A stretch of DNA of 64,000 nucleotides from an uncultured Bacteroidales bacterium (GCA_902776435.1 CACYQB010000005.1:35234-99233), one strand, 5' to 3'; positions 49,257-60,493 are shown, counted from the stretch's first letter. Notes: a model not told the origin generated them from the sequence alone. Program-made: numbers and translations.

Positions 49257-50468
49257 TCAATCTTTAGATTTGGGGTGTTCAGAAAGCCAACGCTGCTGAG
49301 CCTCCAGTAGGTTATTCAGCAAAGACTCGGCAGCCGCCTTACCATTGAAGTGTGAACGCACGTATTCACAACCAGCATTAGCTATGGATTCCAGTTCTTG
49401 CTGGTGCTCTGGCTGCTGATAGTAACTGATTTTGGCCTTCAGGTCTTCGAGCGTGCCATCATATCCGATGTAATGCACGCCTTCCTTCATGCCATAGTCC
49501 TCATAATAACCGACCGTCTGTCCGATATATGCACAACCGCTCGCCATACCCTCAACAAATCCGATACCCGGAAGGCCAATAATATCTTCCCCGACCACGC
49601 ACATCTTGTAGTCATTAAACTTTTCAACCATGTCAAAAGAATAGTACTTCTTTTGATGGCCAAGGAAGAACTTATCGTGTAACCTATTGATGAATTTGCG
49701 TAATGGGTTGGCCGATGCATTAGTATTAAGAGGCTTGTCCTCAGCAAGATAATCACTATTGTTACAATCCACCCAAGGCTTTAACTCTTCAGCATTATCG
49801 TAAATCTGTTTGCGAGTGGGTTGCAAGCATTGGGTACCGTAATACTTGAGCAGGTATAGCGGATAGGTTATCGTTCCCACCGATACAGCCTTATTTAAAC
49901 GCTCTGCAAACGGCTTAACAGGCTTAAACCTCTCGGCAAAAACAAAGGGAATAACCAAATACTGCTTATTGAACCAGCCAAAGTGCTCATCAAACGCTAT
50001 AAACCGCTTCTGCATGTTGCTCTCATTATACATCAAATCCGGATCCAAAGCTTGGACCTTGGCTGAATTGTCCAAAGAGAAATGCAACTGGCTTGAAGCG
50101 ATAAAAGCGTCAGGACGTTGAGCAAACTCAAATTGAGAGCCGAATAACTGGTAAACAATGACGATATCGTCATGCCTGATATCCTTTTCGTTTTTCAGCA
50201 CCTTTATCTTCCTTTGCGGAATGCCATTTTTCCACAAAGTGATCTTGTGTTCAAGGAAACGGAATGATTGCAGAAAAGGGTTTTGTGTGCTATAGGACAA
50301 TGACAATCCTCGTTTGTTAATATATGAGCATACTTCCACATCTTCACGTGAAAGCAGATAATCCAATATATATTTATGCTTAATGGCAACCGACTGCTTG
50401 AAGATGTACTTATTCAACGTCTTCACCAGAAATTCATTGCCATGCAGATTTACAAAAACAATACGCAT
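49257..50468 (-). CDS. Putative GT-B fold glycosyltransferase (CgeB/Glyco_trans_1_2-like C-terminus)
   Basis: C-terminal FVEGMASGCAYIG...EGVHYIGY...IANAGCEYV; N-terminus not recognised. Confidence 0.6.
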   Translation of the reverse strand: MRIVFVNLHGNEFLVKTLNKYIFKQSVAIKHKYILDYLLSREDVEVCSYINKRGLSLSYSTQNPFLQSFRFLEHKITLWKNGIPQRKIKVLKNEKDIRHDDIVIVYQLFGSQFEFAQRPDAFIASSQLHFSLDNSAKVQALDPDLMYNESNMQKRFIAFDEHFGWFNKQYLVIPFVFAERFKPVKPFAERLNKAVSVGTITYPLYLLKYYGTQCLQPTRKQIYDNAEELKPWVDCNNSDYLAEDKPLNTNASANPLRKFINRLHDKFFLGHQKKYYSFDMVEKFNDYKMCVVGEDIIGLPGIGFVEGMASGCAYIGQTVGYYEDYGMKEGVHYIGYDGTLEDLKAKISYYQQPEHQQELESIANAGCEYVRSHFNGKAAAESLLNNLLEAQQRWLSEHPKSKD

Positions 50469-50521
50469 ATACCTGATTTAAAAATTCATCCAAACTTGAA
50501 TATTAGATTCAAAATCTCTAG

Positions 50522-51262
50522 TCATGCTTTTTCACCAAATTCTTTTCTCAACAGGTCCTCATATTCGGTGGGAACGCCTGAGAAGATCACATCGTTGCGG
50601 TCGATGACGTGAATATGAACCTTTTGTGACTTGGCTATCATGTAATTATACAGAGGCGCAACATAGAGTTCGGCCACGCCAGCGATGGGATGCTCCTGAT
50701 TCTCAAAATAGGCAGCTTGGAACATTTCTGCACTCTTGAAATAGTAGAGCCCTGTAGAGCAGTACTTGGAGATCTCCTTCTTTTCGGCCGTCTCGACAAC
50801 CCGAGTGGAGTTCTCGGACTCTGTTTTGGCATAAGACCAATTCTTACCTGAGCCTACAAACACTTCAAGGTAACCATCCCAATCATCCATGCCTTGCGGG
50901 AACGTGAAGCCTGGACGGAAAGTGTCGATATTAAAAATCAAGATGGGCTCATCATCAGAGATGGATGCCCCTTCAATTCCCTTGAGCACAGTTTCGGCCT
51001 GGCCTTTGGTCGGTGCGGGCAGAATCACAACCTGGAAGTCCTTGATACCCATCAATTCACACTCTTTTTCGATGAATGTTTTGGTATCAAAAACGTCCCT
51101 TGCCACAAACACAAAACGACACGAGTCAAAATAATCCTTGAAACTCGAGACCGCCAGGTTAAACAAACTCCGGTTCTTGATATATAGCATGTACTTGGGC
51201 AGCACATATCCCGCTTGGGTAAAACGGGAACTAAGGCCCGCCATTGGGATGATAATCGTCAT
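50522..51262 (-). CDS. Sugar-phosphate nucleotidyltransferase-like capsule protein (BcbG/KfoH-like)
   Basis: IIIPMAGLSSRF...LPKYML, TKGQAETV, NIDT, EKKEIS, GLYYF. Confidence 0.8.
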   Translation of the reverse strand: MTIIIPMAGLSSRFTQAGYVLPKYMLYIKNRSLFNLAVSSFKDYFDSCRFVFVARDVFDTKTFIEKECELMGIKDFQVVILPAPTKGQAETVLKGIEGASISDDEPILIFNIDTFRPGFTFPQGMDDWDGYLEVFVGSGKNWSYAKTESENSTRVVETAEKKEISKYCSTGLYYFKSAEMFQAAYFENQEHPIAGVAELYVAPLYNYMIAKSQKVHIHVIDRNDVIFSGVPTEYEDLLRKEFGEKA

Positions 51263-52812
51263 TATTTCGTCGATTTTAGTTCAATATACAATCGTAAAGC
51301 ATTGGCCAACATGGCTTTCTGTCGTTCGGGGTTATCCCGATGCAGAGGGAGCATTGACAGAAACAGATGCACCATGATTGGATAGACGTTTAGTTCCTCT
51401 ATATTACAACCTGCAAAGAGCAATGACTTGAACAGTTCTTGTGTCGCCAGGACAGAATCGGTCGTTTCTAATTTCAGGTTGATATCGTAAGGTGCCGACT
51501 CACTGTAATCAAACATTCCAGCGATAATCAGGTCATACAAGCCGACAATCGAATGAGCGAGTTTTGCCACATCATACCTCATGTCGCCATACATCGTGAA
51601 ATTACCGTCATTATCTATGCCACGAGGATCTATCACCTTCACACTCTTAGACTTAAAGTCATAGAGTATATTACTGAAACAAAAGTCTCCATGCATCATG
51701 GTGACAAATTCACGTTTGTCGCGTGCTATCATTTCACCCGTCTCCTGAACAATCTGCAGCAACGAAGGCGTCTGCGTCCCGTTCAGTTTCCACGGTTGGT
51801 CTAAAGAGATGCCAGTTTCTTTTGCATACTCAGTCAGTCGCTTAAGTGTCTTGGGCAAGTACAGTTCATCGTTATTCCTGGCGATTCTTGAGAGTTCCTC
51901 ATCAGAATCAGGTCGGTACTTCGCCAAATCATCGATAAAGAGCCTACACGCGTTCAGGATATCGTTCCATACGAATTGCGGATGCTGGCAGAAGACAAAC
52001 AGATTGGCCAAGGAACTCAAGTAATAATACTCCATCTCATAGAAACCGGTATCACCATTGATGCCGCTGTCCCAAACTGCAGGAGCATAATGCCTCAAGT
52101 TTTTGGGCAAGTTCTGCATCCATTGAGCCTCTGCCATCATCTTATTGATGTCATGGCTGGACTTTTTGAGCGAGAATCGCCCTATATTCAAATCGTTGAA
52201 CACACGTTGAGTAGTCAAGTTTGAAATCGACCGGTAATACGTATTCACCAGGCCGAAATCCATCCAAGAGTCGCTCATGATCCGTTCAAGCGAACGGGTT
52301 TTGCCATATAGTTCAACACCTGCAATGAAAGAACTGTTCTGCTGCGTGATGCACTTGATGAGGTGGGACTGGGAAGAGAAAGCAAAGAACCCTGCAAATA
52401 CCGAACCGCTATCAACCGATGCCCACGCATAGTTATCTTCGGCACGGGCTATCACATAACTGTCGGGCACAAATGACAGATGCCCAAAAAGTGTATCACC
52501 ATGCAGGATATACAACGGCTCGTCAAAATGTCCAGCGCTATTCAGACAATAAATCACAGACTGGCCCAACGACAAACCATCAGGAACCATGATGAGATTC
52601 ACTTGTCCATTTTCAAGCTGCTTCTTGTCATAAGCCGACAACTCGTAAGATTCAGGCAACGAAAGATATATGGGCTCTTCCCTGTCCTTAAACAGCGAGA
52701 GCTGATGCATGTACAGGCGCTTGTTCTGCACCGGCAACATGCATGGTGGCAGCATGCCTAACTCTGAGGCAAGGCTCGGATTAACGTATGCCGCCGATGT
52801 GATGAGAATCAT
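51262..52812 (-). CDS. Capsule protein with degenerate nucleotidyltransferase N-terminus and APH/choline-kinase-like C-terminus (BcbE/KfoE-like)
   Basis: LPPCMLPVQNKRLY; HGDFCFSNIL and VIDPRG kinase motifs; YDVAKL; FLSMLPLH. Confidence 0.75.
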   Translation of the reverse strand: MILITSAAYVNPSLASELGMLPPCMLPVQNKRLYMHQLSLFKDREEPIYLSLPESYELSAYDKKQLENGQVNLIMVPDGLSLGQSVIYCLNSAGHFDEPLYILHGDTLFGHLSFVPDSYVIARAEDNYAWASVDSGSVFAGFFAFSSQSHLIKCITQQNSSFIAGVELYGKTRSLERIMSDSWMDFGLVNTYYRSISNLTTQRVFNDLNIGRFSLKKSSHDINKMMAEAQWMQNLPKNLRHYAPAVWDSGINGDTGFYEMEYYYLSSLANLFVFCQHPQFVWNDILNACRLFIDDLAKYRPDSDEELSRIARNNDELYLPKTLKRLTEYAKETGISLDQPWKLNGTQTPSLLQIVQETGEMIARDKREFVTMMHGDFCFSNILYDFKSKSVKVIDPRGIDNDGNFTMYGDMRYDVAKLAHSIVGLYDLIIAGMFDYSESAPYDINLKLETTDSVLATQELFKSLLFAGCNIEELNVYPIMVHLFLSMLPLHRDNPERQKAMLANALRLYIELKSTK

Positions 52813-53216
52813 ACGAGAGAATGGGTATATTCCTTTTCTTTCTTAAGCATCTCCTTGATTTCCTCATAACTCATGTTATGGAACTCAGAGGGGCGGATGC
52901 TCTTGTCGTCGATATAGAATCCTTCGAAGCCACACCAGGGTTTGCCGACGATCACTTCATCAAAGGGCACATCATTCTTCTGCAGCCAGTTGATGATATT
53001 GGGCAGGGTGTAGATATTGATTTTGCCGACATTCGCCTCATAGGTGCGCATCTGGCGACTCGAGTGGATAATAATCTGGAACCCTTCGGCCTGGTATTTC
53101 TTCAACAGGTCAATGGTGGGTTGTATCGGCTTGCTGTTGAAGTAATCACCATTTTCAGTTACCGAAATCGTATCATCCAGATCGACGATGAGTTTTTTGA
53201 CTTTATTCAAATCCAT
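52809..53216 (-). CDS. Capsule biosynthesis phosphatase, HAD-IIIC (EcbF/BcbF family)
   Basis: LIVDLDDTI, HSSRQMRTY, GKPWCGFEGFYIDDKSIRPSEF. Confidence 0.88.
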   Translation of the reverse strand: MDLNKVKKLIVDLDDTISVTENGDYFNSKPIQPTIDLLKKYQAEGFQIIIHSSRQMRTYEANVGKINIYTLPNIINWLQKNDVPFDEVIVGKPWCGFEGFYIDDKSIRPSEFHNMSYEEIKEMLKKEKEYTHSLV

Positions 53217-53235: not shown

Positions 53236-54312
53236 TTAATTCAGACTATTTGCCAGGAATTCCATGCTTTTCTTGCGCTCGGAGGCCAATGAAATCCGCA
53301 CCTGGTTCCAATTGATATCATGTGAAGTGATATCCGCTGCCTTCAAATCTGTCACTAGCCTAGTTTCCAATCCTAGGGATTGCAGCATGCCATGAATTCT
53401 CGTGTTGCCCCTATCAGCGTTGCCAATGGTGTAGAAATCACGTCCGAACAGGATACTGAAAACTGTGCCGTGGAACGAGTCGGTCACCACGACCGCAGCT
53501 TTTCTCAGCATAGCCAGCCATTGCTCAACGGTCAAGGTAGAATTCCAACCCGCCGAAAATTGACGAACTTTCAAGCCTCGTTCTGCAGCCAACTGGTTAA
53601 TAAAGGCTTCTTTCTCAGGAGTGACATCCAGGCAATAAACGGCTAAATAGGGCTCTCCCCCATCCCAGCCAGAATCAATGACGGGTTGATAGTCCTTTGC
53701 TTCTAGCAGCATTGTGGGGTCGAGCACACACTGGGCCTCAACATTCAAATGTTCTCGACACAGGTTGACACCACTTAATTCGCGGACCGACACCGCATCG
53801 AACCGCTGCGCCAGCCCAGCACATCCAGCAGTCTGCTCCGCGGTATATTCCCAATTGTCTATACCGAATGATGCAGCATAGGCCACACGTTTCAAATCCA
53901 GCCCTTCGGCAAAACGCAGATACATGTCCTCGAGATGGTCGCCATTGTACTTGGCGCGCCACACCTGGTCACTACCGACAACCAGCGCGTCAAGGCCATA
54001 TTGCTTAACGACTCTGCGCTTATAATGCCACATCACCTTGGTTTTGTTGATATTCTGTTCGATAAAGCGTCCCATCAGTTCGTTGCGCAAGGCCCCTTTA
54101 TAGGGATTCGGCATGTAAGCCTTCTGACCCGTCATGCGCTTGATGATAGCACGCAAACTGTTGAACAAATAGCGAGTCGTGGAATAGCGCTGGTAGGCGT
54201 CAATCGTGATGGGTTCATGCCCTAGTTTCTTGAGCGCCTGCTGCAACGCCCAGTTCTGCAAGATGCCGCCGTAATTCATCTCTAACGGCTGTGTCACGAT
54301 TCCCACACGCAT
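53236..54312 (-). CDS. Polysaccharide pyruvyltransferase family protein
   Basis: NYGGILQNWAL, VGSDQVW, YAASFG, VSVRE, LDPTML, TDSFHGTVFS. Confidence 0.92.
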   Translation of the reverse strand: MRVGIVTQPLEMNYGGILQNWALQQALKKLGHEPITIDAYQRYSTTRYLFNSLRAIIKRMTGQKAYMPNPYKGALRNELMGRFIEQNINKTKVMWHYKRRVVKQYGLDALVVGSDQVWRAKYNGDHLEDMYLRFAEGLDLKRVAYAASFGIDNWEYTAEQTAGCAGLAQRFDAVSVRELSGVNLCREHLNVEAQCVLDPTMLLEAKDYQPVIDSGWDGGEPYLAVYCLDVTPEKEAFINQLAAERGLKVRQFSAGWNSTLTVEQWLAMLRKAAVVVTDSFHGTVFSILFGRDFYTIGNADRGNTRIHGMLQSLGLETRLVTDLKAADITSHDINWNQVRISLASERKKSMEFLANSLN

Positions 54313-56071: not shown

Positions 56072-59000
56072 ATGATGAAACGATTACTATTTCGAACAGG
56101 CTTTGCCGTGCTGCTGGTATTTTTATCCAGCATCTCGGCACAAGCAAACGTAACGCTCAACGAGAACAACTTTCCAGACGAAACTTTCAAGAATGCGGTC
56201 TCACAAGCTACTGGTGTACCTGTAAATGGTACGATTACAGACGCACAAATCAGTGCTTTGACCACACTGGACGTACACGACATGGGTATCCAAAGCTTAA
56301 GAGGCTTGGGATATCTTACTGGCCTTATCTACCTGGACATCAGTGGCAACAACAATCTGACCACAGGTGCCGACATCACAGGATTAACGGCGCTCACTAC
56401 TCTCAAGGCCAGCAATTGTAATTTGGTCACCTTAGCGGGAATTACAGGAACAAGCAGTATAACTAATGTCACAGGATCAGGATTTACAATTAGTGCCAAC
56501 AATGCCAATCTAACTTATCTAGACATTTCTAACAACCCTGATTTCTACTCCAGCAGCAATCTTCAATACCTTACAAGGCTGGAAACATTAATACTTACTA
56601 ATTGTACGCATTATGACGGCTGGAGCGCAACGGTAGGAAACGCTTTGACCAAGCTTAAGTATCTAGATGCCAGTCATTGTTATTTAAACTTCGTGTCTTT
56701 ATCCGGTCCTGCCACATTGGAGCACTTTGACGTTAGTTACAACACACGTCTAGCTGGCATTACAACAGCATCTGCAGGCTCTAGCAATCACTATATTAAA
56801 TTAAATTCCAATTGTTCGAATCTTAAATATGTTGATGTCAGTTATTGCACCAACATGGATCGCATTTTCTTGTACTCGGCCACTCATTTAGTGCATCTTA
56901 ATGCCGCAGGCACAAAAATTAAGGGATTTAGTTCGAACCTATCTACGAGTGACGCCACTCAATATTATATAACATTGAGTAACACCCTGGGCAATAACGG
57001 CACTCTGAAATATCTTAATCTTTCAAATTGCAGCAATTTGAATAGTTTTAGAGCACTTGCCAATGCATATCATGTCACATCATTAGATTCGCTGATATTG
57101 ACCAATGACACCGAGTTGGGATGGTCTAATGACGGCATTGAGGCCCAAACCAATATGACATACCTTGACGTGACTCATTGTGCCATCTCGACTGCAGGCC
57201 CTAACTATATCCCCAATTTCGACAACTTAAAGCATTTGGAGACTCTACTTTATGGCGAGAATCCCAATGTAGGTTACTTAAGAATTACTGGCAACAGCAA
57301 CCTGAAGACGCTTGACCTGCATAATAATACGGGGTTGACAATGCTTGCTTTAGACAACTGCGGGCTACCTCGAAATAACCTTAGCATTAACGACACAAAC
57401 TGTCCAGCATTTACGGGCCTCAAACTCAATAATAACGGTTATACTTCAGTTGGCGAAGCAATGAACAACGCTTCTACATGGGGACTAAACAACGTCAAGT
57501 TCTTGTATCTGGAGAAAAATAACTTTGGTGGTGCTTTAACACTTACTAGTAACGAGTGTAATGGTTTGACTGGCTTGGACTTGAGCAACAATAACTTCAC
57601 TAGTTTTGCTGCTCCAAGTCTGCCCGAGAATCTGACAGCCCTCATGATTGGTAAGAACCCGAACATGAAGCGCCTAGAGATGCATCACAATCCTGGCATC
57701 ATAACCATGGCTGCCGATACCGTGATGAGTGATGGCAGTGGATTGTATTTGTTGGGCAATACGGGGTTGACCTATATGGACATCAGCGGCACAGCCGATC
57801 AACCTAACTACTTCCAACGCATTGGTAACAATTTCTCACTTGCCAATGTGCCCATTGACACGCTGAAAGCCAGCCACAACCAGTTCTACACCTTCAGGAA
57901 CCTGTCGGTGGTCAGCACCCGTAACGGATGGGAAGTCTGGAAAAATGGTCAATATGGATGGATTGAATACAATGAGCATTATAGTCCAGCTTCTGATGGC
58001 TATGTTTATGGCTACTGGCCGCCCTCTCCCGCCCAGCCTGACAGCGCATCTCTCGAACAGTTGACCAACCTCAAGTATCTCGACTTGAGTTACTGCAACC
58101 TGAAGGACTCAGTACATCTGCACAAAAACCGCGAACTGCGTTACCTTGACGTGAGCCACAACCGCACCATCGAACGCATCTACGAAAAGCCGGAGCATGA
58201 TAAGGGATGGGATTACCGCAACGCTCCGGACGACGGCACAGCCGATAAACGTTCTTTCCCCGACTACAAGAAATATCTGTGGTTGAAAGATCCTAATTCC
58301 ACTGGTCTTGAGCCCTTTACCGGGGAATATAATGATACTACAGGCCTCTATGACCTAGACCTAGCATACAACAACAAGCTCGAGTACCTAGACATCAGTT
58401 ATACTGGCATTGAGCAAACAGCAGCACAGCATTGTTATGTCGCCAACGCTCGTTACGTGTGGATTCAGGACCTCCCCAACTTGAAGTATCTCTACGCTGA
58501 TTACAATGGTATGCGCTCGATGGGTATCGGAACTAAGAACGGCAGATTCTATCAGGAAGGCCTTAAATCCCTTGAACGATTATCTGTCATTGGCATGCGA
58601 GGCACTGACAACAAGACCATGAAAGGCTCCATCAATTTCAGATCACCGGATGATCCTGTTAGTCCTTCACCCTGCGTGAATCTGCATTACATCAATGCCT
58701 CCTATGCCAATTTTGACTCCATCGGCATCTACAACCCCACCGTAGACACTATAATCATCAAGGGCAATCCGTTGCATTATGTGAATGTTCAGTCATTACC
58801 ACTCATCACCTATGTTGATGCCCGAGAGTGTGCCTTCAAGATGCGTGGTTATGACGTTGAAACCGAAAGGACCTATCCGCCTGATGTCGATGTGTACAAA
58901 AATGGCGCACGCAATGGTGGATGGTACAACGATGCTAACACCAATGACTTCCCAAATAATGATCCTAATAACTATAAGGTTAAGTCCCCGTTTAGCGGAC

Positions 59001-60493
59001 TACGTGGCGTGATGGCCTACGACCGTCCTGAACTGACCACGTTACTGCTTGACAACTGCAACGCATTGACCAATGTATATGCTCACCATAATCCCAAATT
59101 GACTAAGATTAACGGTTTTGATAATCTGGCTTATCCCAAACCCGAAGTTGATGCCACGTTCGGCTATGATCTCGTGGATGCCGACTCACTGACACTGGTC
59201 TATGTCAATGACAACAAGGTGTTTAATAACTTGGATCTGACCCACAATGTAAACTTGAAGTACCTGCATGCCTATAATGACAGCACATTAGGCACTACCC
59301 TGGGCGGTACTGGTATGGACTTAACCGCCAACAAGAACCTGGTTAGTGCTTGGGTATCTAACTCACGTCTGGAAAGATTTGTCAATGACGCGGGCCAACA
59401 TCTTGACACTCTGAAGATTTGGCAGAATCCCGAACTGGATTATCTGGATGTGAGTGACAATGGCAACCTCAGGTACTTCGACCTGCGTAACTGCATGATC
59501 AGGACGTTGAATCTTGATAATAACAAGAAACTCACCTACTTTGACTGCAGCAACAGGGACAGCATCTGGACTAATTACGAACATTTCACATTCAACATGC
59601 CTGGCAGTGTGCCTACTGTCATCGATGACCCAGGCAAGAACAGTATCGCTGACTTGCACTTCAAGAGCGATAGCTTGAGGGTTGTTCATGCCGACAACAA
59701 TGACCTGTATTGCATGGACGGTTTGAGCACCAACCACAAACTATACAAACTGACCTATAGTTATAACCATATCAACGCTATTGACTTGAGCGGATGCGAT
59801 AGCCTTGTGAATGATAACTATTATAACTGCTATCACAATGTGAGAGGTCTGATTCCAGGTGAGCTATCGTCATGGAAAACGACAGTGAACAACGTGACAA
59901 CAGAGCATAATCTATACTACTTCCAGCTTGAAGAGGACGCTGGAGACGGTTTGAATGGCCATAACACGTTCTTAGGCATCAAGTGTGGACAAGACTCGTT
60001 GTTGTCCGATCAAACTTCAGGCTACGAACGGCAGCTTGCTGCTGACGGATTTGATCCAAACAAAGTTTTGGTATTCACCACGAATGCATCCGGTCCGCAC
60101 CACGGCTCCAGGACTCCCGCGTCAGGAGCGCCCATGAGGGTTAATGTTGATCCAAGTGAGCAACTTGATCCAGATTCGTTCTATGGCACTATCGCCATCC
60201 TCGACAAGTATGATCTCGTGCGTAACTATATCGAGTATATTTACGATGACCAACGTCCCAGCCATCGAAATCGAGACGGAGGCGGTTCGGCATTCGGTAT
60301 CGCATGGAATCCACCCGGCATACCGACCGTCGTTGATGAAACAGCGGCCGATGACTTGGGCGAACTCACTGTCGTGAGCGAGCGTTACTTTGACGCTGCC
60401 GGCGCCGAGCACAGTGAGCCCGTAAGCGGCGTGAACATCATCGTGCGCCAGATGAGTGACGGTTCGACCGAGACCGTTAAGGTCATCAAGTGA
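56072..60493 (+). CDS. 1473-aa secreted internalin-like leucine-rich-repeat protein with T9SS-type C-terminal domain
   Basis: Signal peptide; LNENNFPDETF cap; many LKYLDxSxN/C repeats; tail VVSERYFDAAG...PVSGVNIIVRQMSDGSTETVKVIK. Confidence 0.85.
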   Translation: MMKRLLFRTGFAVLLVFLSSISAQANVTLNENNFPDETFKNAVSQATGVPVNGTITDAQISALTTLDVHDMGIQSLRGLGYLTGLIYLDISGNNNLTTGADITGLTALTTLKASNCNLVTLAGITGTSSITNVTGSGFTISANNANLTYLDISNNPDFYSSSNLQYLTRLETLILTNCTHYDGWSATVGNALTKLKYLDASHCYLNFVSLSGPATLEHFDVSYNTRLAGITTASAGSSNHYIKLNSNCSNLKYVDVSYCTNMDRIFLYSATHLVHLNAAGTKIKGFSSNLSTSDATQYYITLSNTLGNNGTLKYLNLSNCSNLNSFRALANAYHVTSLDSLILTNDTELGWSNDGIEAQTNMTYLDVTHCAISTAGPNYIPNFDNLKHLETLLYGENPNVGYLRITGNSNLKTLDLHNNTGLTMLALDNCGLPRNNLSINDTNCPAFTGLKLNNNGYTSVGEAMNNASTWGLNNVKFLYLEKNNFGGALTLTSNECNGLTGLDLSNNNFTSFAAPSLPENLTALMIGKNPNMKRLEMHHNPGIITMAADTVMSDGSGLYLLGNTGLTYMDISGTADQPNYFQRIGNNFSLANVPIDTLKASHNQFYTFRNLSVVSTRNGWEVWKNGQYGWIEYNEHYSPASDGYVYGYWPPSPAQPDSASLEQLTNLKYLDLSYCNLKDSVHLHKNRELRYLDVSHNRTIERIYEKPEHDKGWDYRNAPDDGTADKRSFPDYKKYLWLKDPNSTGLEPFTGEYNDTTGLYDLDLAYNNKLEYLDISYTGIEQTAAQHCYVANARYVWIQDLPNLKYLYADYNGMRSMGIGTKNGRFYQEGLKSLERLSVIGMRGTDNKTMKGSINFRSPDDPVSPSPCVNLHYINASYANFDSIGIYNPTVDTIIIKGNPLHYVNVQSLPLITYVDARECAFKMRGYDVETERTYPPDVDVYKNGARNGGWYNDANTNDFPNNDPNNYKVKSPFSGLRGVMAYDRPELTTLLLDNCNALTNVYAHHNPKLTKINGFDNLAYPKPEVDATFGYDLVDADSLTLVYVNDNKVFNNLDLTHNVNLKYLHAYNDSTLGTTLGGTGMDLTANKNLVSAWVSNSRLERFVNDAGQHLDTLKIWQNPELDYLDVSDNGNLRYFDLRNCMIRTLNLDNNKKLTYFDCSNRDSIWTNYEHFTFNMPGSVPTVIDDPGKNSIADLHFKSDSLRVVHADNNDLYCMDGLSTNHKLYKLTYSYNHINAIDLSGCDSLVNDNYYNCYHNVRGLIPGELSSWKTTVNNVTTEHNLYYFQLEEDAGDGLNGHNTFLGIKCGQDSLLSDQTSGYERQLAADGFDPNKVLVFTTNASGPHHGSRTPASGAPMRVNVDPSEQLDPDSFYGTIAILDKYDLVRNYIEYIYDDQRPSHRNRDGGGSAFGIAWNPPGIPTVVDETAADDLGELTVVSERYFDAAGAEHSEPVSGVNIIVRQMSDGSTETVKVIK

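Follow-up and report, generated by a model that had tools for sequence, protein, structure and literature searches.

We analysed a 64,000-nucleotide stretch of DNA from an uncultured Bacteroidales bacterium (GCA_902776435.1 CACYQB010000005.1:35234-99233; hereafter the window), in which positions 49,257 to 53,216 carry four genes that look like a pathway for making and transferring an activated sugar. An original prediction, made from the sequence alone, had described them as a coupled phosphatase, kinase and nucleotidyltransferase (NTase) trio followed by an orphan glycosyltransferase, and the open reading frame listing of the window returned all four with the predicted positions and sizes, co-directional on the minus strand. 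The first trio gene, P0001 (52809..53216), encodes a 135-amino-acid (aa) HAD phosphatase of the BcbF/EcbF type; P0002 (51262-52812) encodes a 516-aa protein of the KfoE/BcbE family; P0003 (50522..51262) encodes a 246-aa sugar-phosphate NTase of the KfoH/BcbG type; and P0004 (49257..50468) encodes a 403-aa predicted GT-B (GT4-like) glycosyltransferase from an unclassified Bacteroidales family, a candidate transferase for the trio product. The trio genes are adjacent, on a single strand and in the order HAD, kinase, NTase: the stop codon of P0001 overlaps the start of P0002 by 4 nt (ATGA), that of P0002 overlaps the start of P0003 by 1 nt (TAATG), and a gap of 53 nt precedes P0004. Our preferred reading, to which we assign a probability of roughly 60%, is that these genes act together as a self-sufficient module for a side branch: the trio makes a nucleotide-activated ketofuranose, most probably D-fructofuranose, and P0004 transfers it.

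P0001 scored 199.9 bits against the NCBIfam model TIGR01689 (EcbF-BcbF), above the curated cut-off of 162 and covering profile positions 1-124 of 126, which bears out the family the prediction had proposed for the phosphatase. It is the only TIGR01689-type gene in its genome, and the model is rarely represented in the window's order, where 1 of 301 genomes had a match above the cut-off. P0001 carries HAD motif I (DxDxT) as DLDDT at residues 12-16, the later HAD motifs having been judged by eye, and it matched PDB 1XPJ (E 4e-45); its likeness to the HAD-IIIA/IIIC group was weak (HAD-IIIA, 21.5 bits, cut-off 44.6). A solved 134-aa 'capsule biosynthesis protein', PDB 9IQW, is a distant relative (E 9e-8). 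P0003 matched the nucleoside-diphosphate-sugar pyrophosphorylase 4EVW over residues 3-240 (E 9.5e-71), and no Pfam or NCBIfam model reached its cut-off on it. Its nearest relatives are sugar-1-phosphate NTases and its NTP-binding signature is intact (PMAGLSSRF...LPK), which together with the full-length homology described below places it in the KfoH/BcbG type.

P0002 proved to be more than the kinase that had been predicted. The kinase motifs quoted in the prediction are present (HGDFCFSNIL at residues 374-383, DPRG at 395-398) and lie in a C-terminal APH-fold domain (51262..52197, residues ~206-516) that just passed the Pfam APH cut-off (23.7 bits against 23.2, E 4.6e-5). The first ~205 residues (52198..52812), which the prediction had missed, form an NTase-like domain. 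The AlphaFold2 model, for which 40 diverse homologues were used, reached a pLDDT of 95, and in Foldseek searches its N-terminal domain matched the sugar-1-phosphate NTases GMPPA/B, RmlA, MurU, UGPase and HddC, while the remainder matched the aminoglycoside kinases APH(3'), APH(2'') and APH(4). Profile comparison with hhalign linked the N-domain to the P0003 family (probability 94.7, E 6e-8), and in this alignment PMAGLSSRF is replaced by TSAAYVNPS and PK by PP, that is, the Gly/Arg loop (GxGxR) and the Lys that bind NTP have been replaced. By this comparison the N-domain is a diverged paralogue of the P0003 family. Because seven of its residues (G19, L33, P53, G105, D106, G141 and W183) are invariant across 52 sequences, the strongly conserved domain is constrained rather than decaying. 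Invariant residues of the kinase domain include K217/K224 (a Lys/Glu pair with E228), H374-G-D376 and N381 of the HGDxxxxN motif, and the Mg-binding D395. P0002 therefore shows the KfoE/BcbE architecture, a signature-less NTase-like domain joined to an APH-fold kinase with HGDxxxxN and IDPRG, and is, as modelled, a fusion of the two.

The prediction had named the fructose-branch capsule loci of Escherichia coli K4 and Pasteurella multocida B/E as relatives, and this homology held up. Searching the window genes directly against complete E. coli genomes with blastn gave no match, and the trio of a Haemophilus metagenome-assembled genome (MAG; L066) served as a stepping stone. The K4 kfo locus reads epimerase, 546-aa gene, 686-aa GT2, insertion sequence, 477-aa gene, HAD, 522-aa gene, 241-aa gene, dehydrogenase, GT2, and its identity was verified by the 686-aa protein, which matches the chondroitin synthase 2Z86 over the whole solved chain with 1455 bits. 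P0001 is 58% identical over its full length to the K4 HAD protein, P0002 is 36.5% identical to the protein at the kfoE position (residues 1-509 against 1-514, E 2e-116) and P0003 is 45% identical over its full length to the 241-aa protein encoded after kfoE; the order of the three genes is common to K4 and the window. We take the small HAD reading frame of K4 to be kfoI/orf3 and the 241-aa one to be kfoH/orf1, names absent from the annotation of the record. The two loci differ in their surroundings: K4 is a kps ABC-transporter capsule of a proteobacterium, whereas the genes around the window trio include those for an EpsG/Wzy-like polymerase and a Bac_transf initiating transferase, and K4 has no P0004 homologue, whereas in the window P0004 follows P0003. 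For the bcbE-bcbF-bcbG genes of P. multocida B/E (ecbE/F/G), the model TIGR01689 that P0001 passes was built on EcbF/BcbF itself, and the window proteins are connected to BcbE and BcbG by homology only indirectly, by way of their K4 counterparts and of TIGR01689; the Pasteurella system also differs from the window in host, export pathway and acceptor (ManNAcA in Pasteurella).

The link of such trios to fructose branches, also part of the prediction, is documented by mutants. In P. multocida B the fructose branch disappears when bcbE or bcbG is mutated (PMC13552107), and in K4 kfoE is required for the beta-fructofuranose branch, its deletion yielding unfructosylated chondroitin, from which KfoE was named a fructosyltransferase (PMC8858990). 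Three further E. coli loci carry the trio at identities comparable to those of K4. One is a kps locus in an O15:H18 ST69 strain; since K52 predominates in CC69 (PMC13171598) and has rearranged kpsM/kpsT, this locus is probably K52, a fructose-containing capsule according to a title cited in PMC5566550. The second is a further kps locus. The third is an ABC-transporter O-antigen locus beside galF in E. coli 720632 (L091:8806-14136), which holds the trio and a WavE gene; on this basis we expect the unusual sugar to occur in an E. coli O-antigen as well. A minimal kps region 2, in E. coli NMBU_W05E18 (L089:8901-16422), consists of five genes only, the trio and those for a 1157-aa multidomain protein annotated HAD-IA and a 456-aa unknown protein, and would lend itself well to identifying the transferase. 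In every trio-bearing locus of known structure, fructose is present.

Because a protein of the P0002 family combines an NTase-like domain with an APH-fold kinase, the literature label of fructosyltransferase for KfoE is probably wrong, and the kfoE deletion phenotype is better read as a loss of donor synthesis. If the label were right, the 516-aa protein would itself transfer fructose through its NTase/GT-A-like N-domain. The label comes from the abolished fructosylation of the deletion strain (PMC8858990), which donor-synthesis loss explains equally well. NTase and GT-A folds are related and the N-domain is strongly conserved despite its missing NTase signatures, but its closest relative is the true NTase paralogue and not a glycosyltransferase, and P0002 has no DxD motif. 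Some minimal E. coli region-2 clusters do offer few other candidate transferases, but in most loci a variable candidate transferase gene adjoins the trio. We therefore regard transfer by the KfoE-family protein as very unlikely and retain P0002 as a probable donor-synthesis enzyme.

The trio is widespread. The kinase family comprised 3096 cluster representatives at E<=0.001, nearly all of 500-550 aa, and at the stricter E<=1e-30 it still had more than 900 clusters. At least 574 relatives turned up when species genomes were scanned, and our counts of trio loci refer to the best 80 loci. Just upstream of the kinase gene lay a HAD gene in 74/80 of these, and just downstream lay an NTase gene in 79/80. 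The hosts include Bacteroidota as well as Acetobacteraceae, Vibrionaceae, Shewanella, Aeromonas, Campylobacter and Haemophilus, spanning Alpha-, Gamma- and Epsilonproteobacteria, and the trio is thus a cassette conserved across phyla. At the remaining 6 loci we did not find the small HAD as a gene of its own; at two of these (L062 and L083) a protein of ~712 aa occupies the HAD place upstream of the kinase and is possibly a fusion that includes the phosphatase.

A family of this size, found in loci with uncharacterised glycans, might vary in specificity, so that the module would work as described on a sugar other than fructose, either another ketose (sorbose, xylulose, tagatose or psicose) or some different unusual sugar. 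The window proteins are just 36-58% identical to the fructose-linked E. coli proteins, and L-sorbose and D-xylulose occur in Campylobacter jejuni capsules (PMC10919079). However, the kinases of K4 and the probable K52 locus, both linked to fructose, are only 37% identical and no closer to each other than to P0002. Moreover, 35 residues are invariant in 52 kinases, K4 and K52 included, and all 35 are kept in P0002; since many of these positions lie beyond the catalytic core, their invariance argues for one substrate. Given also the fructose found wherever the structure of a trio-bearing locus is known, a non-fructose product seems to us unlikely, though it deserves to be kept in view, and fructofuranose is the substrate we favour.

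We next consider the orphan transferase. The AlphaFold2 model of P0004 was of moderate quality (pLDDT 78). In Foldseek it matched 6KIH (E 7.5e-10) and, at TM ~0.5, PimB', MshA, BshA and HepE, with sucrose-phosphate synthase also among the matches. Two Rossmann-like domains and full-length structural matches indicate a GT-B fold for the modelled protein. P0004 scored 20.5 bits against Pfam PF13524 (cut-off 25) and had neither an NCBIfam match nor a PDB sequence match; as no curated family reaches its cut-off, we treat P0004 as an unclassified GT-B family.

In the window and its near relatives the P0004 gene is the first gene after the NTase gene, whereas in Proteobacteria this slot is most commonly occupied by WavE (PF07507) or by a distant relative of it, with WavE itself the partner in ~30 proteobacterial loci. 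By hhalign, WavE is also tied to neighbour genes in Cytophaga (L022) and Rhodospirillales (L062/L083) and to the 456-aa E. coli protein (L089:12394-13764); three of the neighbour families compared were linked to it. WavE-like proteins may be the usual transferase for this donor. Many of the WavE loci (L032-L087; e.g. L052:10321-11244 and L068:10257-11249) are lipopolysaccharide (LPS) core clusters with heptosyltransferase, WaaA and ligase genes. The core loci of Vibrio, Photobacterium, Shewanella and Aeromonas carry the same trio as the window, and in the Vibrio wav (LPS-core) locus the 1XPJ- and 4EVW-type genes match the window phosphatase (E 4e-45) and NTase (E 9.5e-71); both structures presumably come from V. 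cholerae. The V. cholerae core contains fructose. In Vibrio-type loci, however, the NTase gene is followed by WavE, and WavE is not related to P0004: hhalign between the P0004 family and PF07507 gave a probability of 0.3, indicating no homology. The idea of a single hidden transferase family beside the trio was rejected, as P0004 showed no relation to WavE, to KfoD, to the 456-aa E. coli protein or to 20 other neighbour families. KfoD, the 456-aa protein and the O-antigen-locus proteins belong to no Pfam or NCBIfam family.

No P0004 homologue was found in any of 400 further genomes from the order, the window's own copy being the sole one, and the association with the cassette was therefore tested on metagenome contigs. 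A metagenome scan with the P0004 family yielded 80 loci at 35-99% identity to P0004, of which 35 were well flanked, with at least 7 kb on either side. A donor cassette lay within ~7 kb of the transferase gene in 33/35 of these, one further locus had a partial cassette at its edge and one had none. Since P0004 occurs in none of the 400 other genomes, chance cannot explain this association. The cassettes were not all of one type: 5 were trios, 2 divergent fused, 16 split and 10 divergent split.

The split cassette is best seen in syntenic loci from rumen metagenomes, where close P0004 homologues (79-83% identity) adjoin not the trio but a different cassette of four genes, located between a pyruvyl transferase gene and the P0004 homologue (L096:4033-6937 and L092:3996-6948). 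Its genes encode a 243-aa NTase (29% identical to P0003; E 0.006 against NF045761), a 184-aa beta-PGM-type HAD protein, a 295-aa APH-fold kinase with a weak Choline_kinase match, and a 228-aa signature-less NTase-fold protein. The split cassette is thus made of the same four modules as the trio, separated and highly diverged. No solved relatives were found for its kinase and its 228-aa protein. By hhalign the 228-aa protein was linked to the true NTase family (probability 96.5) but not directly to the P0002 N-domain (0.6), and we therefore regard the two as analogous degenerate NTase-fold units rather than orthologues. In human-gut contigs a third, more divergent version lies downstream of the transferase. 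A C. jejuni capsule locus, that of GP013 (L027:2013-7476), holds a trio together with an upstream HAD184-like gene and a 228-aa-like NTase-fold gene, so that parts of both cassette types adjoin each other there.

In a maximum-likelihood tree of the transferases, the starred branches force at least 6-7 switches between trio and split cassette, and there are sister pairs with opposite cassette types. Judged on this tree, the two cassettes can stand in for each other, so that their donor is probably the same. In both locus types the gene immediately before the cassette encodes a polysaccharide pyruvyl transferase, at 68% identity in the syntenic split-cassette loci (L096:2926-4002); it accompanies the module in the rumen clade, and most P0004 homologues have a less similar relative of it only a few kb away.

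Taken together, these data give the predicted role of the orphan as the cassette transferase strong comparative support in Bacteroidales, although P0004 is not a universal partner of the trio and Proteobacteria mostly have WavE-like genes in its place. We conclude that the P0004 family has a functional link to what the cassette makes, the simplest role being that of the transferase for this product. It is conceivable instead that the cassette makes the donor while P0004 adds a neighbouring backbone or branch sugar, either the acceptor or a residue atop the ketose, and that another transferase of the locus adds the ketose itself. At least eight other glycosyltransferases are encoded there, the pyruvyl transferase and a GT2 gene likewise flank both cassette types, P0004 is missing from most trio loci, and co-occurrence as such cannot separate use of the donor from a role in an adjacent step. 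However, the association is near-obligate among transferases down to 35% identity, across varying gene orders and distances, and it outlasts repeated replacement of the cassette; P0004 also sits directly after the NTase, in the slot held by the WavE-like candidate transferases of Proteobacteria. We therefore judge a role for P0004 in a neighbouring step to be improbable and continue to regard it as the likely ketose transferase.

The weak Choline_kinase match of the split-cassette kinase also raises a different kind of product, a non-glycosyl substituent such as a phospho-alcohol, an alditol phosphate or a choline-like head group, which would be activated by the cassette and transferred as a phosphodiester. 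APH-fold kinases do include choline and ethanolamine kinases, and two of the trio-bearing E. coli loci make sugar-phosphate polymers. On the other hand, the repeats of K4 and P. multocida B/E have fructose and no phosphodiester substituent, the NTase is nearest to sugar-1-phosphate NTases, and P0004 resembles GT-B enzymes of the NDP-sugar type rather than LicD or TagF. We consider this scarcely credible, and a glycosyl donor remains the product we propose.

On our preferred reading, in which the trio makes an activated fructofuranose for P0004, the APH-fold kinase domain would act on a sugar phosphate, for instance fructose-6-phosphate, and phosphorylate it at the anomeric O-2; P0001 would strip the distal phosphate, and P0003 would couple the anomeric phosphate to a nucleoside monophosphate, giving NDP-fructofuranose. 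P0004 would then place the sugar on the growing repeat unit, while the likely role of the P0002 N-domain is to bind a substrate or product, or to serve as a docking site for the true NTase. The route through fructose-2,6-bisphosphate is a possible one, suggested by the folds and by the heptose precedent; the identity of substrates, intermediates and nucleotide is likewise inferred, as is fructose in this organism's glycan. The NDP-heptose pathway (HldE/HddA, GmhB, HldC/HddC) shares the logic of an anomeric kinase, a phosphatase for the distal phosphate and an NTase, and HddC was among the fold matches of the P0002 N-domain. However, the heptose kinases are GHMP or ribokinase-like whereas the window kinase has the APH fold, so the two do not share a family and the analogy is one of logic only. 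AmgK and MurU, an anomeric MurNAc kinase and a uridylyltransferase, come closer in fold, as they too pair an APH-fold sugar kinase with an NTase fold like that of MurU, which ranked among the top fold matches of the N-domain. Their pathway does without a phosphatase, the window N-domain lacks the catalytic signature, and there is no membership at the sequence level.

Several observations weigh against this scheme. The nearest PDB relatives of the P0002 kinase are aminoglycoside kinases, not anomeric sugar kinases, and no paper on NDP-fructose synthesis for bacterial glycans turned up in the literature searched, whether as UDP-, GDP-, CDP-, ADP- or CMP-fructose. P0004 homologues were found in 6/80 trio loci, all in Bacteroidales, and were missing from 74/80, so that the association could reflect a step adjacent to the ketose rather than its transfer. 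In C. jejuni HS1 fructose is added by HS1.08 from an 11-gene locus without the trio (PMC7901785), and the trio is therefore not the sole route to fructose. Finally, C. jejuni IA3902 has three unknown genes whose lengths (240, 507 and 132 aa) correspond to those of the trio, and no extra polysaccharide was detected in it (PMC7901785).

The window trio is a new member of a cassette that is genetically known and biochemically unsolved; what is new here is its dedicated GT-B partner family and the finding that fused and split cassettes have repeatedly replaced one another. Tentatively, we go further and suggest that the two cassettes are interchangeable routes to NDP-beta-D-fructofuranose, a bacterial nucleotide sugar not described before, by way of fructose-2,6-bisphosphate and fructose-2-phosphate, and that P0004 founds a family of GT-B ketofuranosyltransferases that put fructose branches on the capsules of abundant rumen and gut Bacteroidales. 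Replacement of the trio by the split cassette beside the same transferase is a natural control, and the locus itself combines compact, translationally coupled genes for donor synthesis with a dedicated, predicted soluble GT-B partner; together they make the donor question directly testable in vitro. Fructofuranose branches decorate glycans of medical and industrial importance, among them the K4 chondroitin precursor, the K52 capsule and the capsules of haemorrhagic-septicaemia Pasteurella. Our data predict that rumen and gut Bacteroidales commonly bear ketose-branched capsules, which, if true, would bear on phage and immune recognition and on acid-labile epitopes missed by standard composition analyses.

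The four genes are embedded in a long minus-strand polysaccharide locus whose G+C content is below that of its flanks. Apart from the pyruvyl transferase gene directly upstream of the trio (53236..54312, minus strand; PF04230, E 6.8e-34), it contains an EpsG/Wzy-like gene, the Bac_transf initiating transferase, many GT2 and GT4 genes and acyltransferases, and is a capsule or exopolysaccharide locus. The nearest genome locus to it is that of an uncultured Prevotellaceae MAG. On the plus strand, a gene for a 1473-aa leucine-rich-repeat protein (56072-60493) forms the divergent flank of the polysaccharide locus, and the same position is kept in related contigs (L096:1-1543).

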